The notes under the pieces: model-generated
Told to the model about the DNA's origin: nothing
The model's input: the letters and a program-made list of their open reading frames with translations, nothing else
The model's database searches: none
Shown: piece after piece, positions 1-11,456 of the stretch
How positions within the stretch are numbered: position 1 is the first letter of the stretch
How the letters are laid out: each line of letters starts with the position of its first letter
Translations under genes and position numbers: made by a program
DNA from: a virus
Taxonomy: Duplodnaviria; Heunggongvirae; Uroviricota; Caudoviricetes
Direction: 5' to 3' (one strand)
Virus record (IMG/VR): IMGVR_UViG_2671180770_000008
Coordinates: 1-11,456 of that record
DNA: 11,456 nucleotides

Positions 1-47
1 TACAGTCCTTTTTTCTCCAGACATTCTGCCACGTGATCATGTAGCAT
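1..47 (-). CDS. 5' end of an unidentified CDS running off the left edge (MLHDHVAECLEKKGL...)
   Basis: ATG at 47..45 preceded by GGAGG (RC of 54..58) with a 6-nt spacer; only 15 codons visible, product not recognisable. Confidence 0.4.
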   Translation of the reverse strand, partial: MLHDHVAECLEKKGL

Positions 48-101
48 AAGTGACCTCCGATTATCTACAGACTGCCATCCTGAATTTACCTTCCCTTAAT
101 G

Positions 102-199
102 AAATAACAATAAAAAACAAACCACACAAAAACAATAAAATAACACACAAAAAAAACTAAATAATAAACAAAAATAATCACCTTATTTTATTATTTTTT
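102..199. repeat. 98-nt G-free A/C-rich low-complexity tract in the AT-rich region upstream of the edge ORF
   Basis: Direct reading: no G on the plus strand from 102 to 199 (aaataacaataaaaaacaaaccacacaaaaac...). Confidence 0.7.
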
Positions 200-281
200 G
201 AGGGGGCAATTACTGAACAAAAAACGCTGACTATATACTCAAAACCAAACAACTATTCTGCCAATCAGGTATCATGGCAAC

Positions 282-303
282 ACACGGAATTACCGTGTTT
301 TTG
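282..303 (+). terminator. Candidate Rho-independent terminator on the plus strand
   Basis: Stem acacgg (282..287) / ccgtgt (293..298), loop aatta, then ttttt (299..303). Confidence 0.4.
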
Positions 304-512
304 CCTTCTCTGCCCATACAATACGGGCATATACTTCATACTCTATTGTAATATTTCTATCCATGCGCCCCACTCCATTTACCTGTAAATAATATTCAAA
401 ATATTTATCACAGAAATCGTTTTTGTCCATGAACTGAGCACACTATAAAGTCCGGAACTGACTCTTTGTTAAATTACCTTAACGTTACCAGTAACACCTT
501 CATAACAAAACA

Positions 513-980
513 TCACGGTATACACTGGGTACGGATATATTCCTGTGCTCCTTCCAGTTGCTTCTGCATTGCCATCAGCCGTTCTCTGAGGATGAAATAA
601 TCCCGTTCAGCGGCTTCTGCCAGTCGGGGACCGGTTGCATTATCCACGCCGGAGGTGATGGGGGCTTTACGCAAGGAGCCTGGACAGTTGGCGTTGATGC
701 GCAGGCGCTTACGACCAGCGGCAACATCAGCACGCAGAGTTTCATTTTCAGCTCTCGCATCGGCTAATTCCCTCGAGTATCTGGCATCAAGTGCAGCGAC
801 ATCACGCTGGCGTACCTGCATATCAGTAATTGTCACGTTCGCCAGCTTCAGCTCACTGGCTTTTTTATCGCGTTGCGCTTTGTAGGTAATGGCGTTATCG
901 CGGTAATGATTCAGCCCCAGACTAAGCACACCACAGGCTACCAGCAGGACAATAATCACCACACACAGAACACGGTTCAT
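513..980 (-). CDS. Rz: Rz i-spanin (inner-membrane spanin subunit)
   Basis: 155 aa; N-terminal TM segment then coiled-coil; strong similarity to lambda Rz as I recall it ([43 protein letters not shown]); ATG at 980 preceded by GAGGGGGA. Confidence 0.93.
575..760 (-). CDS. Rz1: Rz1 o-spanin lipoprotein, embedded in the +1 frame of Rz
   Basis: 61 aa; lipobox LVVSAC, proline-rich [26 protein letters not shown] closely matching lambda Rz1; entirely nested inside Rz. Confidence 0.9.
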
Positions 981-987
981 ATCCCCC

Positions 988-1119
988 TCACCCCACCAGC
1001 CATGACAAAGTTAAGACGCGCCAGGCAGTGGAAAAGCAAATAGCAACCAGCATTAGTGAAAATGAAATGCCGACGATTACACAGAGGATCTTCGCCAGCG
1101 TTATGAGCTTGTCTGACAT
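988..1119 (-). CDS. 43-aa small hydrophobic protein ([43 protein letters not shown]), unknown function
   Basis: ATG at 1119 preceded by AGAGGA plus 6-nt spacer; stop TGA 990..988 lies 7 nt before the Rz start; one predicted TM helix. Below the ORF-track size cutoff. Confidence 0.45.
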
Positions 1120-1131
1120 GCTTAATCCTCT

Positions 1132-1314
1132 TCACGATTTCAACGCAATGACCAGTTTTGCCAGCCCATACAGCATCGGAGACACAGCAATACCGACCGC
1201 CACCCACTTAATAGCAAAAGCCAGCGCTCTGCTGACGTCATCAGTTACAGGCGCTTTCAGTTCAAGGCCGTTTTTCATAGTCAATCTCAACAGAATTCGT
1301 TTATACTTTCCCAT
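1132..1314 (-). CDS. 60-aa small protein with C-terminal TM helix (MGKYKRILLRLTMKNGLELKAPVTDDVSRALAFAIKWVAVGIAVSPMLYGLAKLVIALKS), unknown function
   Basis: Internal ATG of track ORF 1132..1392; the longer N-terminal extension reads through a terminator hairpin and is rejected; AGGGAG-like RBS upstream; stop 12 nt before the next RBS. Confidence 0.45.
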   Translation of the reverse strand: MGKYKRILLRLTMKNGLELKAPVTDDVSRALAFAIKWVAVGIAVSPMLYGLAKLVIALKS

Positions 1315-1351
1315 GTTCTCCCTTGCCTTACTCAAGGTCAGAAACACAAAA

Positions 1352-1380
1352 CCCCGTTTGCGGCCAACAAACGGGGTTTT
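1352..1380. terminator. Bidirectional intrinsic terminator
   Basis: Perfect 9-bp inverted repeat ccccgtttg (1352..1360) / caaacgggg (1368..1376), 7-nt loop, A-tract on the left and T-tract on the right. Confidence 0.7.
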
Positions 1381-1469
1381 ACTTTTATTCACTTAGTTTT
1401 TGCCAGTTCGCAGGATTTCGTGTTATCCGCCCGCGTTGGCCAACGTCATTTTTCAGCAAAATATTCTGC

Positions 1470-1860
1470 TTATCTGTCAATTCCCCAGCACGCCAGTGCA
1501 CTTTCCTGGTCTCGCCGGGATACCTGGCCGTAGCAATTATTTGAGCGGATACGGCAGTCTCTGCCACCGTCCTTAATCCACCAGCGAATCGCTTCGCAGG
1601 CACCTTTTCGATCACCTGCATTAATCCGTCTGTAAAACGTAGACGGGAAACACTTACCGGGGCCAATGTTATAAGGACAAAATGACGCGATACCCGCCTT
1701 CTGGGGTTCGGTCAGCGGTACTTTAATATTGCGCTCCACCCACTCCAGCGCCTTATCACGTTCAATGGCGTTACCCACCAATTTCCGGTGCCACAGTAAC
1801 AGTAATCTTATCCGGGTAATTATTTATCCCTTTAACAACCAGTTCGTATTTTTTCTTCAT
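1470..1860 (-). pseudogene. Disrupted endolysin: C-terminal ~100 aa of a GH24 phage lysozyme (RrrQ / Stx-phage R type) joined out of frame to an unrelated 29-codon ORF (MKKKYELVVKGINNYPDKITVTVAPEIGG)
   Basis: Frame 1470..1781 encodes NAIERDKALEWVERNIKVPLTEPQKAGIASFCPYNIGPGK...GACEAIRWWIKDGGRDC...ALACWGIDR, matching the C-terminal half of lambdoid lysozymes; there is no SAR/signal segment or catalytic Glu-Asp-Thr region; the ORF starting at 1860 (good RBS GGGGAGAG) stops at 1773..1771 in a different frame. Confidence 0.7.
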
Positions 1861-1864
1861 CGCT

Positions 1865-2080
1865 TTACTCTCCCCGCGCCGCCTTACGACGGTCCTCTCT
1901 GATTTTGAAATACAGGTTAGTCAGATACGTCAGCAGGCCAAACAGCAGACTCCCCAGCACACCTATCGCCACCCACTGGGACGGAGAGACTTTGTCCAGC
2001 AGCTGCAGTAACCAGTATCCCGTCCCCACCGCTGACGTGGTGTATGACACACCTGTTGTGATTTTTTCCATCTGGTACAT
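1865..2080 (-). CDS. S: Class II holin (S21-type pinholin), 71 aa, with dual-start motif
   Basis: [10 protein letters not shown]...[40 protein letters not shown] closely matches phage 21 S / EssD-EssQ holins; Met1 and Met4 dual start; RBS GGGAGA upstream. Confidence 0.92.
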
Positions 2081-2155
2081 ACCCCGTCTCCCGCAATCCG
2101 GAAGCTCACAACAACAGGAGGGGCATCAGCTCACACCGACAGCCCCTGCGTATGG

Positions 2156-2425
2156 TTACATCATCATTTCGCCGCCAGGCTGAGGCTCACTGCTACCGTC
2201 AGGCTGAGACACAACGCCATCTGAAACAGCACTGTCACCCGCGCCGTCTTCAGGCTCAGGAGCAGCCGGTCCCCCCAGCAGCTCATCCAGAATGGCATCC
2301 ACTTCAGCATCAAGACGCGCCTCAAGATTCTGGCGGAGTTGCTGTTTCAGTGCGCTTCTGACTTCTTCAGAGCGCAGGACGTCCTTCACTGCTTCAGCAG
2401 TGACCAGAGATTTTATTTCTGACAT
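2156..2425 (-). CDS. Hypothetical acidic protein, 89 aa (MSEIKSLVTAEAVKDVLRSEEVRSALKQQ...)
   Basis: Internal ATG of track ORF 2156..2581; the upstream extension overlaps the better-supported 60-aa gene in another frame; weak RBS. Confidence 0.5.
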   Translation of the reverse strand: MSEIKSLVTAEAVKDVLRSEEVRSALKQQLRQNLEARLDAEVDAILDELLGGPAAPEPEDGAGDSAVSDGVVSQPDGSSEPQPGGEMMM

Positions 2426-2462
2426 GGGATTTTCTCGTTGAAAGGTGTTGTTAAGAAAGTTG

Positions 2463-2645
2463 CTACGAAATGAGAGGCTCTTCGGGTTTTGTTCCGGCTG
2501 ACTGGCTGGCGCTGATTTTTTCCGCCGCCGCGGCATCAATCTTTTTGCGTATATAGTTCCGGATAACCTTATACCCGCCACTTACCAGATATAACGTGCA
2601 CACCACCGTGCAGAAATACAATAAAATAAGCTGTACAAATCTCAT
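2463..2645 (-). CDS. Small membrane protein, 60 aa (MRFVQLILLYFCTVVCTLYLVSGG...)
   Basis: ATG at 2645 preceded by GGGAGG; hydrophobic N-terminal helix. Confidence 0.55.
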   Translation of the reverse strand: MRFVQLILLYFCTVVCTLYLVSGGYKVIRNYIRKKIDAAAAEKISASQSAGTKPEEPLIS

Positions 2646-2739
2646 TATCCCTCCCGGTTATTGATATGGTGTTGACATCGTTAATACCTGTTGGTTAAAA
2701 AAGTGTCCTGCATGTTTTGCTTTGGATATAACGACATTT

Positions 2740-2787
2740 GCCGCCGGTTCTGGCTCCTTGTTTTCCCTGCCCCGGCGGCCTTTTTTT
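2740..2787 (+). terminator. Intrinsic terminator on the plus strand (antisense to the late operon)
   Basis: 8-bp GC stem gccgccgg (2740..2747) / ccggcggc (2772..2779) followed by ttttttt (2781..2787). Confidence 0.55.
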
Positions 2788-2792
2788 CCTGC

Positions 2793-4730
2793 TTACGGGT
2801 TATTCACTTCCACTGTTATACTTTCAATCAGCACCGGATATGTCGCACCGCTAGTGATATCGGTCACGCGCAATTTGTCTGCCGTAAACGTGCCGACCGG
2901 TGACTGTGACAGCATGAACGGCGTCCCGTCCTTACCATCAATGACCGGCGTCACCTCAATACTGTTGTTACCGGCAAAACGGAAGCCCAGCGTATGCCAT
3001 TCGTTATCAAATGCGCCGAATGACCCCAGCTTCGTGTTCTGACCAGCATTTCCCTTGTGGTACATCACATTAAGGTCTGTGGCATCGCTCTGTACGTAAA
3101 ACGACGCCAGCAGGTTATGACCGGCATTACCTTCCAGTGTGACGCCCTGAGGCAGTGAAGAAACCGGCCAGTACAGCGCCAGTGCGTACTGATTAGCTGT
3201 CAGTGTGCCATCAACTTTAAAACGACAACTGATAAGCCCGCCCTTCTCCAGCAGGTCTGCGCCATTACCGGCATCATGCTGCATAAACCACGAGGAACTT
3301 CCTGTCTGTTTGGTCCACCTCAGCGCCTTACCTCCTGCAGCACCTGCATCATCAACTACCAATGCACGCCCTCCTTCAGCTCCCCATCCCTGCGGATTCA
3401 GTAAACCACCTGACTCTGTTGCACGGTAATAAAGCAGCGTTGTCACTGATTTCCCGTCCGTTGACGGTGTTGATGGTGTGTCCGGTGACGGCTTCTCATC
3501 CGGCGGCATCACAACCTGTTCCCCACCCACCAGTTCAGCCGTCCGTCCTGCATGGAGAAGAATCGCTGAGGCAAGACGGTCAGAAATAATCCCCCTGCGT
3601 GCCCATGAGCTGAAATGGCTCGCACGGTCTGCTGACGTCCAGTTTGCCGACGTCCGGGAGGCCGCACCGTAATATCCTGATGCCGGAATATCCGGGTCTT
3701 CTTCCGGTTTGTTCGTCGGGACATTTGCTCCGTTCTCATCGGTCATGAACGGCACAAAGTGAATATTCTTTTCCGTTTTGTTTTTGTAACTGCCGTACAC
3801 CGTCTGGTAAGTGGATTCGCTCTTCTGCTTCCAGAAATAAGTTGTGTCTCCACATATCCAGGGAACACCGTCAGCAGAACCACCAGCGCACTGTCCCACC
3901 ATATCTGCAAGGTCCGTACGATATTGTTCCACTACTTCTGTAAAACGGGCTGTGTGATTTGCTGGCGTTCCGTCAAAGTCAAATTCCCCCTGCATCCACA
4001 CCACGGCAAGCAGCACATTTTTCGGGTTCTTTGCCAGCGCGGCTTTTGTACGACCGATGAGATCCTTATACAGCGGCCTGCCCACACCCCAGCGGGTATA
4101 ACTCTCTGAGGCACCGGTCACGTCACTGTATGTTCCATCTGCCCCGGTGGTGAAAGCTGAACCACCACGGCAGCACGGAACCAGAAGAATACCCGCATTC
4201 GCCGGTATAAACGGCAGCAGCTTTTTGGCAATATGCAGCCCGTGCCCCACGGTTCCGTACTGACCTTTCGACAGGTCAGCTTTCGGATGGTTAAGACGGC
4301 TCATGTCCTGTACATCATGCAGACAGTGGTCTGCCGGAATAATGTCGTTATATTTACAGGGAGCGCCATCCGGCGTCACTGTGCTGCGACGAGCCAGTTG
4401 CTTTATACGCGGGTCAGGACGGTCATATGTCTGCGGCAGAGGAAGCCCCTCACCGTAAGCCATGCCGTTCGACTGCCCGGCCAGTGGAATAACGTAGTAA
4501 TAATCTGGCTCCGTGGTGACCACTCCCGGATAGCCACCATCCCCCGTGCCGGGCACAACCACTGGCGTGGTCACATCCCCCTCCGCGGCAATCGCCTGCA
4601 TCAGGGTATAAGGGGTTATGGCCACAGGACTACCAAACGGCTGCCAGCCCTCTTTCAGTTTGTGTGTCAGCTTTTCCGCAAGATCTGACGGCGACGCCGC
4701 CCTGACAACATCATAATGTTTAATCGACAT
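2793..4730 (-). CDS. nanS: NanS-p-type prophage sialate O-acetylesterase, 645 aa
   Basis: Strong RBS GGGAGA; N-terminal MSIKHYDVVRAASPSDLAEKL... segment, esterase-type motif YYVIPLAGQSNGMAYG, size and position (between Q and S) as in the NanS-p proteins of E. coli O157 prophages. Confidence 0.88.
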   Translation of the reverse strand: MSIKHYDVVRAASPSDLAEKLTHKLKEGWQPFGSPVAITPYTLMQAIAAEGDVTTPVVVPGTGDGGYPGVVTTEPDYYYVIPLAGQSNGMAYGEGLPLPQTYDRPDPRIKQLARRSTVTPDGAPCKYNDIIPADHCLHDVQDMSRLNHPKADLSKGQYGTVGHGLHIAKKLLPFIPANAGILLVPCCRGGSAFTTGADGTYSDVTGASESYTRWGVGRPLYKDLIGRTKAALAKNPKNVLLAVVWMQGEFDFDGTPANHTARFTEVVEQYRTDLADMVGQCAGGSADGVPWICGDTTYFWKQKSESTYQTVYGSYKNKTEKNIHFVPFMTDENGANVPTNKPEEDPDIPASGYYGAASRTSANWTSADRASHFSSWARRGIISDRLASAILLHAGRTAELVGGEQVVMPPDEKPSPDTPSTPSTDGKSVTTLLYYRATESGGLLNPQGWGAEGGRALVVDDAGAAGGKALRWTKQTGSSSWFMQHDAGNGADLLEKGGLISCRFKVDGTLTANQYALALYWPVSSLPQGVTLEGNAGHNLLASFYVQSDATDLNVMYHKGNAGQNTKLGSFGAFDNEWHTLGFRFAGNNSIEVTPVIDGKDGTPFMLSQSPVGTFTADKLRVTDITSGATYPVLIESITVEVNNP

Positions 4731-4816
4731 CGAATTTCTCCCGTGTACAGGAACAGAGTTAAAAAGCCGGAACCGGAATCAAATCACAGGATGACCATCT
4801 GCCAGTGGCTGGTCGT

Positions 4817-4843
4817 AAAAAAAAGGCCGCGCCATGCGCAGCC
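4817..4843 (-). terminator. Intrinsic terminator on the minus strand, upstream of nanS-p
   Basis: Minus-strand RNA GGCUGCGCAUGGCGCGGCC (8-bp stem, 3-nt loop) followed by UUUUUUUU (RC of 4817..4824). Confidence 0.7.
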
Positions 4844-5044
4844 GGAAATAAAGGGATAACGATGATAGTTTGAGAAAAACAGAAATAACACTTTTGTGGC
4901 AAAGCATGGTGCCGGGTGCCTCCCGGTGAATTCAGTACCAGCACCTGAATCCGCGATTATCCCATATACCTGGTTGCTGATTGCCCCTCCGCACAGGGGG
5001 ATTCACCATGCAGTAGTATTTTTAATAAACAGTAAACAAAAAAA

Positions 5045-5212
5045 TCAAGCATTATGCAGGCTGTTTCTTTTTATCACCGGCCACAGCAATACCACAATGC
5101 CGCAGACCAGCCCCCCATCCGCCAGCACCGACATGATTCTGCTGGTGAAATCCACCATCACCACCAGAAACAGCAGGAGTGCAGCCACAGCCAGGCGCAG
5201 TTTTACCGTCAC
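5045..5212 (-). CDS. 55-aa small membrane protein (VTVKLRLAVAALLLFLVVMVDFTSRIMSVLADGGLVCGIVVLLWPVIKRNSLHNA), GTG start overlapping the TerB-like stop
   Basis: GTG 5212..5210 overlaps TGA 5211..5209 (GTGA); GGAG 8 nt upstream; two hydrophobic stretches. Below the ORF-track cutoff. Confidence 0.4.
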   Translation of the reverse strand: MTVKLRLAVAALLLFLVVMVDFTSRIMSVLADGGLVCGIVVLLWPVIKRNSLHNA

Positions 5213-5680
5213 AGGTGATTCTCCAGACGAAGCCCCAGAACACCGGCAATCTCTTCCAGCACCTTGCGCTCTTCCGGCTCAATTTCGCCGTCTGCCTCCG
5301 CAATGGCCACCGCCACATCCAGCACATCTTCCGCTTCACGCGTATCGTGTTTCACATCCTCGATCTCACGTAACGCCGCACGACGACCAATTTTAAAGTT
5401 CGTATCCAGCTGACCGATAATGGTTGCGCTAATCGCATTAATTTCTGACGTAAACGCGGACAGCGCTGGCTGATTACGCAGTACCTGTTCGATCTTCGCT
5501 TTCTAGGAAGCCTCACATTCACCATCTGCACAGGCCACCAGGTATGCGGCGTTAATCACCGTCTGTGCCAGATCGCGTTTCTCAAACTTTCCTTTTTCCG
5601 GTTAACGTGACACACCAATAACTCTTGTCGAAAAAGCCAGCAAGCTGAAAGACCGGTATTCACAACCACCAGCGCGTTTA
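5209..5680 (-). pseudogene. TerB-family (tellurite-resistance TerB-like) gene disrupted by an in-frame amber codon and a 5' frameshift
   Basis: Frame 5601..5209 encodes ...EKGKFEKRDLAQTVINAAYLVACADGECEAS*KAKIEQVLRN...DVLDVAVAIAEADGEIEPEERKVLEEIAGVLGLRLENHL with TAG at 5505..5503; the N-terminal part (..GFFDKS..) sits in another frame; no usable start codon. Confidence 0.55.
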
Positions 5681-5704
5681 CTGTACTGGCGTGATTTCAG
5701 TCAT

Positions 5705-5727
5705 AAAAAAACCCGCCTGGCGACGGG
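5705..5727 (-). terminator. tR'-like terminator of the short pR' leader transcript
   Basis: Minus-strand RNA CCCGUCGCCAGGCGGG (6-bp stem, 4-nt loop) followed by UUUUUUU. Confidence 0.75.
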
Positions 5728-5763
5728 TGTAAAAAATCTTCTAACGTCAGGCATAAAACGCCC

Positions 5764-5803
5764 ATCGTTAGGGCAAATTTACCACAGATTCGGGAAAAAT
5801 CAA
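5764..5803 (-). promoter_or_regulatory. pR'-like late promoter with qut / pause element
   Basis: On the minus strand: -35 TTGATT (5803..5798), 16-bp spacer, -10 TAAATT (5781..5776), then TGCCCT AACGAT GGG, closely resembling my recollection of the lambda pR' -10 / pause region (GGGTAAATTTGACTCAACGATGGG); starts directly after the Q stop codon. Confidence 0.7.
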
Positions 5804-5808
5804 CAAAG

Positions 5809-6630
5809 CTATCTGGTCACCTTTTTCAGTTGTTGTTCTGCCCATGCTTCTTCAATATCAAACTGCACCACCAGCGTATCGTAAAAACGTTTAACTGTTT
5901 TTTTCCATGTATCAAGAGATATGGCATCGGTTACATTACATATGGCATTAAATGCCTCCGTTGAAGGTAATCTTTCATAGCCACGACCACCACAACGCTG
6001 GCAGTCTCTGATAACAGGCATACCACGTTTTACCGACTCTTCACGATGAATGGCAACACCGCGCCCACGACAATCTTTACAGGCGGTGGAAACCTCCCCC
6101 TTCCCTCCACACTCCGGACAGGCAACTTTTACCACCTCCCTGACTTTTTTCCATTCCTCCCAGTAAGACGGATACACGCCTTTTGTGCACTTTGCCCACA
6201 CTGGCGGCTTACCATCCGGATACTGGATCTTGTTTGTAAAAACCTCGCTTTCAATAAATTTTTTTCCGTGACAACAGGGGCACTGTTTTTTGCTCGCCGC
6301 GCTACGGGCATAATCTTCAAACGCATACGAAGCCATAATACGCATCACTGCCGGTTTTATTTCTGCCGGGAGTTTTTTTAACGCCGCCACGCGATCACAC
6401 CGACTGAGTGCATATTCTGTCAGCAATTCTGTTGCCCGCTCTCTGTCATTCATACTAATGCCCATTTTCCCAAGGAACGCAGAAAACCCCATCTCAGCCC
6501 AATTCTGTGTCATGCCCTGCGCGGCCATCACATCAGTGATACTCAGCGTATCTTTCGACGTTGAGGCCGATGCATCAGTCAGGCCGGGGGATTTTGGGGA
6601 GTAGTATTTCGGTAAATCTTCCAGTTTCAT
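5809..6630 (-). CDS. Late-gene antiterminator Q (Q-like, zinc-binding), 273 aa
   Basis: Immediately upstream of the pR'-like promoter; several CxxC pairs (CPCCHGKK, CPECGGKG, CKDCRGRG, CQRCGGRG); position equivalent to quuQ / quuD. Confidence 0.8.
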   Translation of the reverse strand: MKLEDLPKYYSPKSPGLTDASASTSKDTLSITDVMAAQGMTQNWAEMGFSAFLGKMGISMNDRERATELLTEYALSRCDRVAALKKLPAEIKPAVMRIMASYAFEDYARSAASKKQCPCCHGKKFIESEVFTNKIQYPDGKPPVWAKCTKGVYPSYWEEWKKVREVVKVACPECGGKGEVSTACKDCRGRGVAIHREESVKRGMPVIRDCQRCGGRGYERLPSTEAFNAICNVTDAISLDTWKKTVKRFYDTLVVQFDIEEAWAEQQLKKVTR

Positions 6631-7001
6631 TTTTTGACCTGCCCTCCAAGCATTATGGGGTAAATCTTCACCCCCAGACGTCCACCAGATACTGGCTGAG
6701 CACGAACGATATTGATTTCATCAAACTGCTCATCGTCCATTAGCAACCCCGCATGCGTCAGCGCATCCAGCGGCGCTTTCAGAATATTGTCCAGGTCACG
6801 GCGGCGCTTATCCGGTGGCTCGGCAATAATCTTTATCGCCAGCCTTCCGGACAGGCTTAATTTCAGCCGCTGCTGGCGAACAATAAGCGCCACAGCCCGG
6901 CGATAACGCTCACCGGCTTTTGATACAAAATATGTGCTGCCACGACGTCGCCAGTAGGTGTTCACCGTCGGCGGGTAAAGCAAAACAAACTCTATACGCA
7001 T
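6627..7001 (-). CDS. rusA: RusA-family Holliday-junction resolvase
   Basis: PDKRRRDLDNILKAPLDALTHAGLLMDDEQF and SGGRLGVKI align with E. coli RusA ([40 protein letters not shown]); RBS GAGG; stop overlaps the Q start (ATGA). Confidence 0.92.
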   Translation of the reverse strand: MRIEFVLLYPPTVNTYWRRRGSTYFVSKAGERYRRAVALIVRQQRLKLSLSGRLAIKIIAEPPDKRRRDLDNILKAPLDALTHAGLLMDDEQFDEINIVRAQPVSGGRLGVKIYPIMLGGQVKK

Positions 7002-7013
7002 CAGTAACCTCTT

Positions 7014-8063
7014 TTACCCGAGCACGCCGGTTGCAAAGGCGTGATCAAGAAAACGAAAAATTAAATCAACCTGGGAACCATGCTTTTCTTCGAACGCCAG
7101 CGGATCCGCATGAAGCTCGTTGTGATGCTCCCGACACAGCGGTAGCGTGAAAATATCGTGGGATTTTGTTCCCATTCCGCCCTGACCATGACCAATCAGA
7201 TGATGAGGATCGTCCGCTGGCTTACCACAACACGCACACGGCTGTGTCTTTACCCAGCGTGTGTATTTCTCATTTACCCAGCGGCGACGTTTAGGTCGTT
7301 TCATGAAGGATTCCGGAGACTCCGGATCAACGGCAATGCTGACCACCGTCTTTTCCTGTGGTGGGTTCTGTTGCTGGTGGGTGTGAGACGGTAGCGCAAT
7401 ATTTTTTGTGCGCTGCTTCAGTATGCTGGTGGCGGTCTGTTCTCCCGGTATGATGTCGCTTTCACGGTATACGGAGCGGATTTTTTCCGCACGCAACCCC
7501 AGCGAAAGACGTAATACCGCTTCCGGTAGCGCGTCCGCCACCTGATTGCGGACCGCCCACCAGGATAATTCAGCCAGAGATAATTCACGCTCCTGTGCGC
7601 CATTCATTGCGTGACGGATGATGTCAATCATCCAGGCGGCCAGATTCTGTTGAGCAAGTTGATCCAGTGAATCAGATGTCTGCTCCCGCAGCTGGTTGTC
7701 GCAGTGCCAGCACAACACCATCGCGCCGGTACCGTAACGGTGAATGACGGTTTCGCTGTGATGATAATCACCGTGTAGCCACTGGCAGGATTTCACGTGA
7801 CGTAATAACCAGTCAGACAGTGCACCAGCGCCACCCGCAGCACGGATCACCCGCTCATCGCTGAAAAATGGCAGTAGTGATTTATCTTCCGCCAGCGGCT
7901 GGTGAACGGCAGGTACAACCCCGGACGGCAGAGCTCGCATGCTTTTTGGTTCCGGCTCCACCAGTATTCTGCCGTTATGGAATGCTGACATTGATTCACG
8001 GCCTGGCTTAACGATAACCAGACCGAGTTCCGGTACCAGAACAGGTCGAAGTAATACCCGCAC
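7014..8063 (-). CDS. DUF968-family prophage protein (YdfU-like) with C-terminal HNH-like Cys/His motif
   Basis: 349 aa, position as ydfU in Qin (rem - ydfU - quuQ); motif CACCGKPADDPHHLIGHGQGGMGTKSHDIFTLPLCREHHNELH; GTG start 8063 with GGAGG upstream, overlapping the upstream stop. Confidence 0.65.
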   Translation of the reverse strand: MRVLLRPVLVPELGLVIVKPGRESMSAFHNGRILVEPEPKSMRALPSGVVPAVHQPLAEDKSLLPFFSDERVIRAAGGAGALSDWLLRHVKSCQWLHGDYHHSETVIHRYGTGAMVLCWHCDNQLREQTSDSLDQLAQQNLAAWMIDIIRHAMNGAQERELSLAELSWWAVRNQVADALPEAVLRLSLGLRAEKIRSVYRESDIIPGEQTATSILKQRTKNIALPSHTHQQQNPPQEKTVVSIAVDPESPESFMKRPKRRRWVNEKYTRWVKTQPCACCGKPADDPHHLIGHGQGGMGTKSHDIFTLPLCREHHNELHADPLAFEEKHGSQVDLIFRFLDHAFATGVLG

Positions 8064-8064
8064 A

Positions 8065-8343
8065 TTACCTCCAGATCCGTTGCTGGAATGTGCGGGACGG
8101 ACGCGGTGGCCGTTCGGAGTAAGGGAGCCTGACGGAGATTATCCAGTGACGGTAGTCGAGGCTAAGGGCTTTTTTAACCTCGCATCCGCGCCTGCGGTAA
8201 CACTGAATGAGCCATTCGGCCTGTTCTTCAGTGCATGGGGGATGCTGGTACCAGTCAGATTTGAATGCGTGAAAACACCGTCCGCGCCTGCTGGCAAAGA
8301 CGGCAGAATCATCAGAATTGTATAATTTGGTATCGTGCGCCAT
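8065..8343 (-). CDS. Hypothetical Cys-containing protein, 92 aa, in the position of rem
   Basis: Internal ATG of track ORF 8065..8424 (MAHDTKLYNSDD...); the longer extension would read through the hok terminator. Confidence 0.5.
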   Translation of the reverse strand: MAHDTKLYNSDDSAVFASRRGRCFHAFKSDWYQHPPCTEEQAEWLIQCYRRRGCEVKKALSLDYRHWIISVRLPYSERPPRPSRTFQQRIWR

Positions 8344-8415
8344 CGGTTGTCTCTGCTGGCGCAGCAGGTGCCAGTTGTTCAGGCTGGCGTGCGAATTGTA
8401 AACCAGAATGCCAGG

Positions 8416-8440
8416 AAAAAACAAAACCCGCCGAAGCGGG
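8416..8440 (-). terminator. Intrinsic terminator at the 3' end of the hok mRNA
   Basis: Minus-strand RNA CCCGCUUCGGCGGG (5-bp stem, UUCG loop) followed by UUUUGUUUUUU. Confidence 0.7.
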
Positions 8441-8510
8441 TTAAGTGCGGGTGCGTTGAGGATGCCTGATTCATCAGAGGTGGCGAGGGATTTCTCCCTC
8501 GCCGGGTCTC

Positions 8511-8666
8511 TTACTCCTCAGGTTCGTAAGCTGTGAAGACAGCGACCTCCGTCTGGCCGGTTCGGATTCGTACCTCGCAGAGGTCTTTCCTCGTTACCAG
8601 TGCCGTCACTATGACGGTTAAACAGATGACGATCAGGGCGATTAACATCGCCTTTTGCTGCTTCAT
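8511..8666 (-). CDS. hokD: Hok-family type I toxin (HokD/RelF-like), 51 aa
   Basis: MKQQKAMLIALIVICLTVIVTALVTRKDLCEVRIRTGQTEVAVFTAYEPEE, which I recall as identical or near-identical to E. coli HokD; RBS AAGGAG 9 nt upstream. Confidence 0.9.
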   Translation of the reverse strand: MKQQKAMLIALIVICLTVIVTALVTRKDLCEVRIRTGQTEVAVFTAYEPEE

Positions 8667-8871
8667 AGCCTGCTTCTCCTTGCCTTTCGGCACGTAAGAG
8701 GCTAACCTACATGTGTCTAGCATGAAATTGACCTCAGATTAATGTTAGGCGTCTTGCAGGACGCGTAATGTTAACTGGGGCTTTTCTCTGTCTGCCTTTT
8801 GGTGTTCATGCCTGAGGCAGATAGCCTCAAGCACCCGCAGCAATTCTACTTAACTCTCGCTTTACAGCAAA
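8667..8871 (-). promoter_or_regulatory. hok mRNA promoter and leader: -10 TAGAAT (8848..8843), tac-like hairpin, mok-like upstream reading frame (ATG 8723) in frame with hok
   Basis: Leader UUGAGGCUAUCUGCCUCA... parallels the plasmid R1 hok 5' end; the 5' element (RC of 8825..8840) is complementary to a 3' element at 8445..8461 (fbi-type long-range pairing). Confidence 0.6.
8715..8790 (+). ncRNA. Putative Sok-like antisense RNA (approximate extent)
   Basis: Plus-strand promoter candidate TTGCCT (8680..8685), 17 bp, TAACCT (8703..8708); transcript would be antisense to the mok-like start/RBS; no clean terminator found, 3' end uncertain. Confidence 0.25.
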
Positions 8872-8882
8872 CCGTTTTTACC

Positions 8883-8904
8883 CGATATGGGAATTCCCAT
8901 ATCG
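8883..8904. repeat. 22-bp perfect palindrome CGATATGGGAATTCCCATATCG
   Basis: Direct reading; centred on GAATTC; between the 34-aa ORF stop and the hok promoter -35. Confidence 0.8.
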
Positions 8905-8912
8905 TAATGAAT

Positions 8913-9017
8913 TCAGTTCCCTAGTCGATCCATCAAAAACACAACCAGGCAGTAAACGCCCACAACAGCAACAACAGCCAGCGCACCTTCCATTGCCAGT
9001 GAGATATCATCCGACAT
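8913..9017 (-). CDS. 34-aa small hydrophobic peptide (MSDDISLAMEGALAVVAVVGVYCLVVFLMDRLGN)
   Basis: ATG 9017 preceded by AAAGGAGGG with a 4-nt spacer; single predicted TM helix; verified codon by codon. Below the ORF-track cutoff. Confidence 0.45.
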   Translation of the reverse strand: MSDDISLAMEGALAVVAVVGVYCLVVFLMDRLGN

Positions 9018-9052
9018 ATTCCCTCCTTTGGTGTTAATCCCGGCGAACGTTT

Positions 9053-9136
9053 TTACCCCCACCGACAAATAACATATACTAAAAAAGCGATAGCCATAGC
9101 AACGCCTGTAATTGCAAATGCTTCAGGCCAGTTCAT
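9053..9136 (-). CDS. 27-aa small hydrophobic peptide (MNWPEAFAITGVAMAIAFLVYVICRWG)
   Basis: ATG 9136..9134 overlaps the TGA stop of the upstream DUF551 gene (ATGA); GGAGG 7 nt upstream; single TM helix. Confidence 0.45.
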   Translation of the reverse strand: MNWPEAFAITGVAMAIAFLVYVICRWG

Positions 9137-9717
9137 TGGCGCACCTCCTGCGGCGGTTCTGGTAGCGGCATCCAGTCGGTTACATTGCGGCTCTGTGTTT
9201 CGAAAAATTCATCACCATCACGGACTACATCAAAAAACTCACCGTCTCGATATTGCGCATAAAGAACGAATGCGCCATCACATAAAATAATTACGTGCTG
9301 ACCGTCATCCGGCATTCGCTCACTACAGCTTATCCAACCATCCAGAGTTACCGGATAGTTGGTTGACGTTTCCGAGATTTCCCGAAAATTATTGGTTGAC
9401 GAACCCTTCTTTTCCCGAAAGTTTCCAGCCTGAAGCATGGCGGCGCTGTCTGGCGGGGCAGCATATAGCGGCACGTATATTTCCGGTTCCTTATCAGCAC
9501 CGGGTTGCTCTTCCAGTGAGAATGTCTTTCCGGTAAATCGATTCATATAAAGCACGGGCTCTGCTTCCAGCGAAGCCTGAGCAACAAGGGCCAGTGCTAA
9601 ATCCAACTCAATTGCCTCGAGAGAATTTTTGAATGCTGTCTGTTTTACTGCAAATTTCATCGCCTTTACATTTTCACTAACATGACTGATTAACTGCTCT
9701 TTTGTAAAAGTGGTCAT
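9133..9717 (-). CDS. DUF551-domain phage protein, 194 aa from ATG 9717 (alternative GTG start at 9777)
   Basis: C-terminal DUF551-like signature WISCSERMPDDGQHVIIL...DWMPLPEPP; AGGAG RBS 6 nt before ATG 9717. Confidence 0.7.
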   Translation of the reverse strand: MTTFTKEQLISHVSENVKAMKFAVKQTAFKNSLEAIELDLALALVAQASLEAEPVLYMNRFTGKTFSLEEQPGADKEPEIYVPLYAAPPDSAAMLQAGNFREKKGSSTNNFREISETSTNYPVTLDGWISCSERMPDDGQHVIILCDGAFVLYAQYRDGEFFDVVRDGDEFFETQSRNVTDWMPLPEPPQEVRQ

Positions 9718-9773
9718 CTCATTCTCCTTTGATGCGAATGCCAGCGACAATTGAAGCCTGATAGCTAATTCAC

Positions 9774-10169
9774 TCACAATACCGCCTCCTGAAAATTGCC
9801 CTGATAGAACGCCAGTACACGCAGCATAACTTCACTCTTCCGGCACTCGCCACAGATTATGTTCTGTTGTCTGTCGTAGCGGTGTATTTCTCCGTCTGGT
9901 AACTTTCGAATCAATGTCTGGTCGGTTGTTTTCTCCGCTGCCTTACGCCATACGCGATACACCTGTTCTGATGTAAAAACACCGTATTTACCGGGCATGT
10001 ATAAATTGCCGCAAGCCAGTACATCCACAAGGCAACGTCTGACTGAATGCCAGCCTGCTCCCGTCGCTCTCTCCAGTTGTGATATCGTCATGCGTTCATT
10101 TTTGCGTACCAGCCCGATAATTCGGGCCTTCAGTTCTTCACGCTGTTCGTGTGTAAAAGGTTTCGCCAT
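9774..10169 (-). CDS. Hypothetical protein, 131 aa, with predicted N-terminal HTH-like segment
   Basis: ATG 10169 with GGAGG at a 5-nt spacer; RMTISQLERATGAGWHSVRRCLVDVL resembles an HTH; function not recognised. Confidence 0.7.
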   Translation of the reverse strand: MAKPFTHEQREELKARIIGLVRKNERMTISQLERATGAGWHSVRRCLVDVLACGNLYMPGKYGVFTSEQVYRVWRKAAEKTTDQTLIRKLPDGEIHRYDRQQNIICGECRKSEVMLRVLAFYQGNFQEAVL

Positions 10170-10184
10170 AAGCGCCTCCGGCTA

Positions 10185-10910
10185 TCACTTTTCCGACACA
10201 ATACGACCGGATGAATCGACAATCTGCCGAACAATATCCCAGTGCTTGTTCAACTCCCGCAGCGCGGCGCAGACTCGCTCCCACTTCTGAACCTGACCTT
10301 TTGCTCGGCGCAGCTCGCGGTTAGCCACATGCAGCGATGGTAGAATCAGGTCATCTGCTTTCGTTTCAGTGAACGATTGCTGCAACTTCACAATGTCCTC
10401 CACCGCTTCTGTTTTAATTTCTTCCTGTGCAGCCGTTTCCTGGACTGGTAACGCAACACCTGCTGGCTGAGGAAGGGCTTTACCCTCCGTTTCAGCTACG
10501 GATGCAGCTTTCTGCTCTGCCGGTAAATCAACGCCCGGTATGCAGTAACGAAATTTACCATCCTGATTCACGCGAATCAGACGCCCTTTGCTGATTGCCA
10601 TTGCCAGCGATGAATTCGCACGGCGGGAGGTAATTCCGAACATCAATGCCAGCTCATCCGCCGTTTGTGGGCCATGATGTTCAATCGCCTCAGTCAGCAT
10701 TTGCGCTGTCACTTTCGGTACCGGTGACACTGGTTCACTTTCACCAGTCTGAGTCAGCCACCACATCGACCCCTTGTTATCCGCTTCACCACGGCGCTTC
10801 AGTTTCCACAGTTCGTTGACAGCATCTTCGCGGCTGATTCCAAGGCGCGATGCCACTACCTGTGAAGAGGCTTTTTTCAGTGCTTTCAGTGCGTCAAATA
10901 CAGTTTCCAT
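10185..10910 (-). CDS. Hypothetical protein, 241 aa, with two winged-helix-like segments and an acidic linker
   Basis: ATG 10910 (METVFDALK...) preceded by GGAGGA; track ORF begins 6 codons earlier at a TTG; function not recognised. Confidence 0.7.
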
Positions 10911-10931
10911 TAAAACGTCCTCCAACAAAAA

Positions 10932-11456
10932 TTACTTCACAACCCTCTGATTGCTGACATTTGGACGCCAGCTATCCCAGTTAAACGTCACCCATCGACC
11001 ACCGCTCATGGTCATCCGGTCCATAATCCTCTCACCAAGAAGCGTGCTCATTGCGGCATGATTCAGGTTTGTTAACATCCCGACACTGCACAGTGATGCT
11101 GTCCGGCGATCAATTATCTGGTGTAATACCACCTGCTCGTTTTTCGTCTCCCGCTGAACGCCTATTTCATCCAGGACCAGCAAATCAACCCCGCAAAGCT
11201 CCTGTAAAAATTTTTCCCCGGATTTGCCGTTGTCGTAGCTGTCATGCAACACGCTCATGACATCAGACACGGTGACGATAATCACGCTGCGCCCCTTCGC
11301 CATCAGCCGGTTACCCATCGCCGCTGCAAGGTGATTTTTCCCGGTGCCGGTTTTACCGCTGAACACAAAATTCGTGCACCCGGTCATCAGTTCGTCAGCT
11401 ATGGATTTGGCCTGGCTCAGCGCGTATTTTTGCCCGTCGTTCTGCACCTGATAATT
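10932..11456 (-). CDS. DnaC-like helicase loader / replication protein (IstB-type AAA+), C-terminal part; N-terminus beyond the window
   Basis: Walker A GKTGTGKNHLA, Walker B LLVLDEIG, and tail GERIMDRM...WVTFNWDSWR align with E. coli DnaC (GPVGTGKTHLA, LLVIDEIG, GERVMDRM...WVIFNWDSYR). Confidence 0.9.
   Translation of the reverse strand, partial: NYQVQNDGQKYALSQAKSIADELMTGCTNFVFSGKTGTGKNHLAAAMGNRLMAKGRSVIIVTVSDVMSVLHDSYDNGKSGEKFLQELCGVDLLVLDEIGVQRETKNEQVVLHQIIDRRTASLCSVGMLTNLNHAAMSTLLGERIMDRMTMSGGRWVTFNWDSWRPNVSNQRVVK

Follow-up and report, generated by a model that had tools for sequence, protein, structure and literature searches.

Does a late-gene control region that places a NanS-p esterase between the antiterminator gene Q and the holin gene, as Stx2 phages do, and that carries no toxin genes, derive from a Shiga toxin (Stx) phage that has lost its toxin, or does it belong to another kind of lambdoid prophage? 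The question was raised by an 11,456-nt stretch of a Caudoviricetes genome (IMG/VR record IMGVR_UViG_2671180770_000008, positions 1 to 11,456; hereafter the window), which a preliminary description had read as Stx-converting-phage architecture without stx. All genes of the locus are carried on the minus strand, and their coordinates are collected in Table 1.

Table 1 Features of the late-gene control region, with coordinates given as positions in the window and listed in order of transcription.
Feature	Coordinates	Strand	Basis
Q late-gene antiterminator, QuuQ/PF03589 type, 273 aa	5809..6630	-	Pfam Antiterm 5.4e-50
pR' late promoter	5764..5803	-	read from sequence and alignment with the lambda segment 3' of Q
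tR' intrinsic terminator, 7-bp stem ACCCGTC/GGCGGGT then T7	5704..5728 (hairpin 5728-5711)	-	terminator scan
tciA/TerB pseudogene, no start codon, codons 1-17 missing	5209..5589	-	tblastn, translation, alignment
tciB, intact 55-aa DUF3927 membrane protein	5045..5212	-	Pfam DUF3927 1.5e-16; PHROG 1470 'TciB-like' 1.5e-29
STnc100-family sRNA gene (PasD/STnc100 family)	4871..5037	-	Rfam RF02076, 101.6 bits, E=1e-21
Second intrinsic terminator, 8-bp stem (7 GC pairs) then T8	4817..4843 (hairpin 4843-4825)	-	terminator scan
nanS-p, 645-aa prophage sialate O-acetylesterase, three domains	2793..4730	-	Pfam and PDB matches
DUF1378 small protein, conserved neighbour downstream of nanS-p	2463..2645	-	Pfam 5.8e-40
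DUF826 small protein	2156..2425	-	Pfam 1.2e-34
Holin S, P21 class II type	1865..2080	-	Pfam Phage_holin_2_1 (PF04971) 1e-32

At this locus lies the late-gene control region of an Sp6-type (Sakai) prophage, a well-known lambda-like, toxin-free element of E. coli O157 that belongs to the O55:H7/O157:H7/O103:H2 lineages. Sakai prophages Sp12, Sp4, Sp14, Sp10 and Sp11 were checked first; Sp6 proved to be the match, aligning to window positions 1772-9449 with 99.43% nucleotide identity, and EDL933 matched likewise. In the annotation Sp6 lies between potC and potB; it corresponds to the EDL933 prophage at potB/potC. Sakai Sp6 (ECs_1524 to ECs_1530) shares with the window the gene order Q, TciA/TerB-like remnant, tciB, 9-O-acetyl-Neu5Ac deacetylase, DUF1378, DUF826 and S, whereas the window lacks ~535 bp reaching from the 3' part of ydfR into the 5' part of the endolysin gene, carries another segment where Sp6 has the antirepressor, and differs in the early region to the right of position 9449. 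The 4-kb core of the locus is present in 277 complete E. coli genomes with 99.8% identity; an Sp6-type locus is already known, being annotated in these reference genomes.

At the upstream end of the late region, Q was assigned to PHROG 127 (anti-termination protein Q-like) and is identical at 272 of 273 residues to the protein of the Stx2a phage Stx2_EH1910, and at 271 of 273 to Sakai ECs_1524. Its stop codon, ending at 5809, lies directly upstream of the -10 hexamer of pR' (TAAATT, 5781-5776), which is preceded by a candidate -35 element (TTGATT, 5803-5798) and a TG dinucleotide (5784-5783) and followed, in the early transcribed region, by a -10-like pause element (AACGAT, 5769-5764). The -10 hexamer and transcript start read GGTAAATTTGCCCTAACGATGGG in the window and align with GGTAAATTTGACTCAACGATGGG in lambda, within the segment established as the lambda pR' with its sigma70-dependent pause element. 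A generic sigma70 promoter scan called no minus-strand promoter in 4600-5900, pR' included, probably because its -35 element is weak, and we accepted pR' from the lambda alignment rather than from the scan. The terminator tR' is conserved in Stx2_EH1910, and phage 434 has a similar one. Both elements had been proposed in the preliminary description, and the alignment of the -10 and early transcript with lambda, together with the 5728-5711 hairpin and its T7 tract, bears them out.

The position of Q, a promoter with a pause element and an intrinsic terminator are all as in a lambda-type Q-antiterminated late operon. The late control region of lambda itself (Q, pR', 6S RNA/tR') has a nearly identical -10 and early transcribed sequence (TAAATT ... 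AACGAT) followed by an intrinsic terminator, although its Q is of a different family and its Q-to-S interval contains no esterase, tciAB or STnc100. On the lambda model, RNA polymerase would start at pR', just 3' of Q, and in cells lacking Q would halt at tR', yielding a transcript of ~65 nt; with Q, it would become termination-resistant and pass through tR', the tciA pseudogene, tciB, and STnc100 with its terminator, and then on into nanS-p, DUF1378, DUF826 and the lysis genes.

Downstream of tR', the preliminary description had noticed only a TerB-like remnant. The remnant is indeed present, but it is accompanied by an intact tciB, an STnc100 sRNA gene and a second terminator. Residues 18-143 of the JLK-2012 TciA match the tciA remnant at 96.8% identity (tblastn); the reading frame is interrupted by an amber codon (TAG at 5505-5503, GAG>TAG in the alignment), Pfam TerB is still recognised on its 48-aa tail (1.3e-07), and RefSeq labels it a pseudogene with an internal stop. 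There is accordingly no intact TerB-domain ORF (~143 aa) at tciA. The GTG start of tciB overlaps the tciA stop (GTGA), and its product is identical to Sakai ECs_5712 and differs by 1-3 substitutions from the Sp11, Sp12 and Sp14 copies. Plus-strand and other-frame ORFs in 4716-5531 had no family match and were rejected as genes.

The STnc100 match spans the full-length covariance model (5037-4871) and scores well above the Rfam gathering score of 47; the MFE z-score of the region is weak (-1.55), and it is the covariance model rather than the folding energy that supports the assignment. By eye, no convincing separate promoter was seen for STnc100. A gene of the same sRNA family separates the cargo from nanS-p in the Stx2 phages Min27 (where it follows stx2B by 75 nt) and Stx2_EH1910 as well as in the non-Stx phages of JLK-2012 and EDL933, and a synteny of PasD/STnc100, esterase, PasA/C and holin has been described (bioRxiv 10.64898/2026.05.13.724894). 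The EDL933 copies are transcribed, with reads for all 11 and a Northern signal for STnc100_4 (PMC5331693), which we infer from its coordinates to be the potB/potC copy. The hairpin of the terminator that follows STnc100 also appears in the MFE fold, and this terminator is 98-100% conserved in Sp11, Sp12 and JLK-2012. A search for the anti-sRNAs AsxR and AgvB gave no hit in the window at E<=1.

NanS-p occupies the position described for it, in a lambdoid prophage between Q with its cargo and holin S, and the Pfam assignments of the two flanking genes (PF03589 and PF04971) agree with this placement. The protein combines an N-terminal DUF1737 (PF08410, 3.4e-15, residues 4-50), a SASA/SGNH domain (Pfam SASA 5.6e-11, 42.9 bits, cut-off 24.8) and a C-terminal lectin-like DUF6645 (7e-71), a type of domain solved for vb_24B_21 of phage 24B. 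Whether it has an SGNH/SASA esterase fold had been left to structure prediction, a question already answered by its matches to two solved structures: residues 73-391 match NanS/YjhS (3pt5, E=3.7e-118), with the AGQSN serine S87 and SHF histidine H372 aligned to identical residues of NanS, and residues 429-644 match a solved C-terminal domain (6yp6, E=9.4e-97). It is identical to Sakai ECs_1527 at 643 of 645 residues. Near-identity to EDL933 alleles suggests that it removes 9-O-acetyl groups from sialic acids; nanS-p alleles of EDL933 are reported to encode active esterases (review PMC8065619; PMC10462455), and nanS-p is known in non-Stx prophages (PMC10462455, PMC8065619).

The absence of toxin and tRNA genes from the interval, as first reported, was confirmed by several searches. 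The best tblastn hit in the window had E=2.5 with Stx2A and Stx2B as queries, and E=0.39 once the Stx-phage methylase and IraM were included; no toxin-domain ORF was found in the Q-to-nanS-p interval, and neither ARAGORN (0 genes) nor an Rfam scan detected tRNA genes in the window. The locus therefore has neither the stxA/stxB genes downstream of Q/pR' nor the tRNA genes by which an Stx-converting phage would be recognised. tRNA genes (ileZ/argN/argO) upstream of stx are common, though not universal, in Stx phages.

Comparison with other phages showed the succession Q - pR'/tR' - cargo - STnc100 - esterase - holin to be a general feature of lambdoid phages. The non-Stx prophages Sp10, Sp11, Sp12 and Sp14 of Sakai, like phage 434, follow the same order as the window, namely Q, terminator, (tRNAs), tciA/tciB, STnc100-like region, SASA esterase and class II holin. 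They differ from it in having other Q types (Q82-like, 230 aa, or 184 aa), tRNA genes, and esterases of 616-617 aa that are just 57-59% identical to the NanS-p of the window; tciA, broken in the window, is intact in the four Sakai prophages and absent from 434, where TciB is found in the slot without TerB. As these phages share the layout, stx is one cargo among several, and to call the arrangement an Stx-converting-phage architecture is misleading. In the 933W/Min27-type Stx2a phages, tRNAs and cargo including stx2AB are followed by STnc100, a 645-aa NanS-p (73% identical), DUF1378, DUF826, S, R and Rz, but Q is of a different family (144 aa) and an AsxR anti-sRNA gene, lacking in the window, is present.

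Among Stx2-converting phages with the QuuQ-type Q, Stx2_EH1910 (LC567834) and the OkiPb01694 Stx2 prophage share with the window the Q-RusA-DUF968 module (98.5-99.6% identity, across Stx2a and Stx2c phages) and pR'/tR', as well as the downstream order STnc100 - nanS-p - DUF1378 - DUF826 - S, with NanS-p ~75% identical at the protein level; in place of the tciA pseudogene and tciB of the window, their cargo consists of orf65, a DNA methylase gene, three tRNA genes and stx2AB, to which Stx2_EH1910 adds iraM. In this sense the earlier suggestion of an stx-free relative was correct. The same Q module, found in 2,479 genomes, was also seen with a methylase and one tRNA and no stx, and tciAB is a common cargo type, filling the slot in Sp10, Sp11, Sp12, Sp14 and JLK-2012. 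The stretch from tR' to STnc100 is a variable lambdoid cargo slot, in which stxAB, tciAB and methylase/tRNA sets are interchangeable behind one Q module.

The boundaries of the cargo are visible as changes in identity. The window matches EH1910 at 99.6% identity as far as position 5588, where the match ends at a sharp joint (5588/5589) that leaves tciA without codons 1-17. The 1-kb cargo from tciA to the nanS-p 5' end (5600-4600) is 97-100% identical to the non-Stx siblings Sp11 and Sp12, and below 4600 identity to these drops to 42-86%. This joint, together with the occurrence of the same Q module with different cargo in Stx2 phages, supports cargo exchange by modular recombination. We are accordingly rather confident of the explanation as a whole, that this is an Sp6-type late regulatory and accessory segment without Shiga toxin that arose by modular recombination. 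In this process, the Q-pR'-tR' module would have been joined at 5588/5589, via A-rich microhomology, to codon 18 of tciA in a tciAB-STnc100 segment nearly identical to those of siblings Sp11 and Sp12, with a putative second breakpoint near 4600, inside the nanS-p 5' end.

A more specific history would have the prophage descend from a functional Stx2 phage of the EH1910/OkiPb01694 type, in which orf65, methylase, tRNAs and stx2 were deleted and replaced from a co-resident tciAB prophage. The near-identity of the Q-RusA-DUF968 module to Stx2a and Stx2c phages would fit such a descent, as would a joint falling exactly at the start of the Stx-phage cargo, a replacement segment matching Sp11/Sp12, a 645-aa nanS-p nearer in protein sequence to Stx-phage alleles (73-75%) than to those of 616 aa found in other non-Stx prophages (57-59%), and the presence of both locus kinds, Sp6-type and Stx2-phage type, in strains such as FRIK1989. 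We nevertheless consider it quite improbable. No remnant of stx, tRNA, methylase or iraM is left; no allele in the searched phage collection (>200 Stx-phage records) is more than 76% identical to this NanS-p at the protein level; and in 5,426 genomes the nanS-p allele occurs at either at least 99% or at most ~83% identity, with no intermediate linked to stx. Since the Q module also exists stx-free and is so widespread, an Stx-phage donor is not required, and the Q module of Stx phages may equally derive from an Sp6-like prophage. Loss of the toxin, one of the outcomes first proposed, thus found no support, there being no trace of a toxin ever present in the lineage; exchange, the other, is supported only for the cargo, given the joint truncating tciA and the Sp11/Sp12-like segment. 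It is correspondingly doubtful that the Sp6-type late region preserves, as a fossil, the replacement of the toxin by a copy of tciAB-STnc100 from a co-resident sibling prophage, with one joint at the 5588/5589 microhomology and the other formed by homologous crossover in the nanS-p 5' end near 4600.

The cargo left by modular recombination could also be read as a working moron, with the tciA remnant and tciB expressed in the lysogen independently of Q, in roles such as exclusion, colicin or tellurite tolerance, or envelope stress, rather than as mere debris. An intact and conserved tciB, the classification of TciA and TciB as morons in PHROGs, and the retention of TciB without TerB in phage 434 speak for this reading. 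However, tciA has no start codon and contains an amber stop, and the promoter scan found no promoter-like minus-strand site from tR' to tciB. Because its GTG overlaps the tciA stop, tciB probably once relied on translational coupling that is now lost, and the names TciA and TciB are annotation only, with no function demonstrated in the sources examined. We regard a working moron as unlikely, if somewhat less so than descent from a toxin-bearing phage.

As a discovery the locus carries little weight, being annotated already, with nanS-p documented in non-Stx prophages; the useful result is a corrected map that includes tciB, STnc100 and the second terminator, which the preliminary description had overlooked. 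The interchangeable cargo slot bears on the movement of toxin genes among co-resident prophages, and the window adds no new principle to it. Were toxin replacement true, recombination between co-resident prophages would be one way in which genomes of the O157 lineage convert Stx phages into toxin-free cryptic prophages, or the reverse.

Downstream of nanS-p, the DUF1378 gene is found in the same place in Min27 and Stx2_EH1910, and the DUF826 gene in Min27, Sp6 and EDL933. The endolysin gene is truncated in the window copy; the prophage is therefore probably lysis-defective, and the late operon of this copy may be decaying.

ORF mapping of the whole window placed all genes on the minus strand. 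The promoter segment after Q, GGTAAATTTGCCCTAACGATGGG, aligned with lambda GGTAAATTTGACTCAACGATGGG, which lies 3' of lambda Q and is the lambda pR' with its sigma70-dependent pause element. ARAGORN detected no tRNA in the window, tblastn of Stx2A, Stx2B, the Stx-phage methylase, orf65 and IraM against it returned noise only (E of at least 0.39), and the other-frame and plus-strand ORFs of the Q-to-nanS-p interval had no family match; the preliminary description was therefore correct that this interval holds neither toxin nor tRNA. Its statement that only a TerB-like remnant is present was wrong, as the interval also contains tciB, STnc100 (sRNA family RF02076) and a second terminator. The esterase–holin interval (2081–2792), the usual location of PasA/PasC sRNA genes according to bioRxiv 10.64898/2026.05.13.724894, contains ORFs for DUF1378 and DUF826 as well as some terminator-like hairpins.

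Features of the late region, in order of transcription (window positions)
Feature	Position	Strand	Details and evidence
Q antiterminator	6630–5809	-	273 aa; Pfam PF03589, 5.4e-50; DnaJ-type zinc-finger signature
Candidate late promoter pR', directly after Q stop	candidate -35 TTGATT 5803–5798; TG 5784–5783	-	read from sequence
pR' -10 region	-10 TAAATT 5781–5776; -10-like AACGAT 5769–5764	-	read from sequence
tR'	hairpin 5728–5711, then T7	-	terminator scan
TerB/tciA pseudogene	5589–5209	-	family match, tblastn, translation
tciB/DUF3927	5212–5045	-	intact, 55 aa; GTG start overlaps tciA stop
STnc100 sRNA gene	5037–4871	-	Rfam, 101.6 bits (gathering score 47)
Strong terminator	4843–4825, then T8	-	terminator scan, fold
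nanS-p	4730–2793	-	645 aa; Pfam and PDB matches
DUF1378	2645–2463	-	Pfam
DUF826	2425–2156	-	Pfam
P21-type holin	2080–1865	-	Pfam

Judged from its matches to domains and solved structures, the 645-aa product is a genuine NanS-p (sialate O-acetylesterase), as had been proposed. Pfam assigned it DUF1737, SASA and DUF6645 domains; residues 73–391 matched the solved chromosomal NanS/YjhS (3pt5, E = 3.7e-118), with the GQSN serine and SHF histidine kept, and residues 429–644 matched the solved NanS-p C-terminal domain (6yp6, E = 9.4e-97), so the refuting condition named in the preliminary description, a protein lacking the SGNH/SASA fold, fails. The protein is identical to Sakai ECs_1527 at 643 of 645 residues, 73–75% identical to its counterparts in the Stx2 phages Min27 and Stx2_EH1910, and 57–59% identical to 616-aa alleles. 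Genes for nanS-p are also present in non-Stx prophages, and EDL933 alleles give active esterases (PMC10462455, PMC8065619). The gene is mosaic at ~4500–4730: over the initial ~130 nt, which encode the DUF1737 N-terminus, it shares 98–100% identity with the alleles of Sp11/Sp12, the 100-nt linker that follows shows ~42% identity or less to all five compared sequences (32% to Min27), and the remainder is nearer to Stx-phage alleles.

The alignment suggested in the preliminary description for locating breakpoints did yield two, at 5588 on the left and ~4600 on the right. From 7331 down to 5588, where homology ends, the window is 98.5–99.6% identical to the Stx2a phage Stx2_EH1910, across part of DUF968, RusA, Q, pR' and tR'. 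The window joint reads CCGGAAAAAGGAAAG followed by TTTGAGAAACGC, the latter being tciA from codon 18 on; EH1910 has CCGGAAAAGGGAAAAAGACATG here (RBS and start of orf65), and tciA of the non-Stx comparator JLK-2012 has GTGGAAATTAAAAAG followed by TTTGAGAAACG. As read from these sequences, the left joint is an A-rich microhomology joint, with the tciA start and first 17 codons removed; the amber stop in tciA comes from a GAG>TAG change. On the right, 5600 to ~4600 is 97–100% identical to the non-Stx Sakai prophages Sp11 and Sp12, and comprises the tciA pseudogene, tciB, STnc100, terminator, leader and initial ~130 nt of nanS-p. Past 4600, in the direction of transcription, Sp11/Sp12 are only 42–86% identical and Stx-phage alleles are nearer (74–93% in places).

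The layout had been presented as Stx-converting-phage architecture, but it is not Stx-specific. Phage 434 carries a Q82-like Q, terminator, membrane protein, TciB, terminator, SASA esterase and class II holin; Sakai Sp10, Sp11, Sp12 and Sp14 carry Q, tRNAs, intact tciA, (tciB), esterase and holin; and JLK-2012 carries Q, three tRNAs, tciA, tciB and yjhS. Sakai Sp4 has Q followed further on by tRNAs and esterase. In Sp12, Sp14, Sp10 and Sp11 the tRNAs are of Stx-phage type (ileZ/argN/argO or two of these), and intact tciA and tciB take the stx slot. STnc100 lies between cargo and nanS-p in all cases examined with Rfam, starting 75 nt past stx2B in Min27 and EH1910 and directly after tciB elsewhere (the gap is 8 nt in both the window and EDL933 but 66 nt in JLK-2012; compare PMC12370729). 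Given these varied contents and the fixed STnc100 flank, the tR'-to-STnc100 stretch is, on comparative grounds, a variable cargo slot, and its commonest filling in O157 prophages is tciAB.

The same Q module occurs with orf65, methylase, three tRNAs and stx2AB (EH1910 and the OkiPb01694 prophage), in O103:H2 FWSEC0007 with orf65, methylase and one tRNA but lacking stx, and with the tciA pseudogene and tciB (the window). Among 5,426 complete E. coli genomes, the Q module was counted in 2,479 (at least 80% coverage) and the orf65–methylase joint in 1,056. In the FWSEC0007 prophage (5373–7944 of its compared stretch), the genes for Q, orf65, methylase and one tRNA-Met lead directly into nanS-p; as an 'stx-less twin', this prophage comes closer to the Stx2 phages than the window does.

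The interpretation of the locus as an stx-free relative, or one that has lost or exchanged the toxin moron, is partly supported: cargo exchange by modular recombination is well supported, whereas toxin loss is not supported and is improbable. The window holds no stx, tRNA or methylase remnants, and transfer of the shared Q module in the other direction, into Stx phages out of an Sp6-like prophage, is just as plausible. For the body of nanS-p, alleles at least 99% identical occur in 308 genomes, the next class lies at ~83% and the 90–99% band is empty; in a phage collection including many Stx phages, the best NanS-p protein identity was 76%.

The finding is real yet ordinary, with annotation and description already in existence. 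Positions 1772–9449 are 99.43% identical to Sakai Sp6, annotated as lambda-like and inserted adjoining potC, and equally so to the EDL933 prophage between potB and potC. Sakai annotation lists ECs_1524 ("phage antitermination protein Q"), ECs_5711 ("TciA/TerB-like protein", a 48-aa remnant), ECs_5712 (tciB) and ECs_1527 ("9-O-acetyl-N-acetylneuraminic acid deacetylase"); in RefSeq the TerB gene is a pseudogene with an internal stop. The 4-kb core (2700–6700) with the tciA-joint arrangement was found in 277 of the 5,426 genomes at 99.7–99.8% identity, in serotypes including O55:H7, O157:H7, O103:H2 and O121. The gene order PasD/STnc100–sialic acid esterase–PasA/C–holin, along with RusA, TerB, DUF1627 and Q, has been reported as syntenic in a 2026 preprint (bioRxiv 10.64898/2026.05.13.724894), and EDL933 STnc100 copies are transcribed (PMC5331693).

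The window diverges from Sp6 and EDL933 at 1120–1375 and right of 9449 (9450–11456), which identifies the source prophage as a mosaic Sp6 variant; FRIK1989 was the closest complete genome (83% coverage). At 1120–1375 an 86-aa ORF stands between R and Rz in place of the Sp6/EDL933 antirepressor, and the differing early region holds a DUF551-like 214-aa ORF, a 131-aa ORF, a DUF1627-like 247-aa ORF and a replication gene. Within 1470–1860 the window also lacks ~535 bp present in Sp6/EDL933; at the junction (~1772–1776) the ydfR 5' end runs into the 3' portion of the endolysin gene. The 103-aa endolysin remnant matches only Pfam lysozyme positions 52–125, the N-terminal half of the domain being gone, while all best-matching complete genomes have the undeleted form; this prophage copy is probably lysis-defective.

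By analogy with lambda, pR' would fire constitutively and transcription would stop at tR' when Q is absent; Q made after induction would modify polymerase at the pause site, so that neither tR' nor the terminator behind STnc100 would keep it from transcribing nanS-p and the lysis genes. The esterase NanS-p would, according to the literature, de-O-acetylate Neu5,9Ac2, permitting growth on mucin-derived sialic acids. Its coding sequence suggests that tciA is dead, and translation of tciB, the start of which was coupled to tciA, may or may not persist. Probably STnc100 is made as a discrete sRNA with its 3' end at 4817–4843.

A hok/sok type I toxin–antitoxin locus is also present: a Sok RNA (RF01794, 8661–8836, minus strand, 113.5 bits) adjoins an ORF at 8511–8723 (minus strand) of hokD/mokC type as annotated in Sp6 and EDL933. 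At 8421–8502 (minus strand) there is a weak isrK-like match with a terminator-like hairpin at its end; it reaches 27.7 bits, below the gathering score (50). Min27 and EH1910 carry full isrK/C4 elements.
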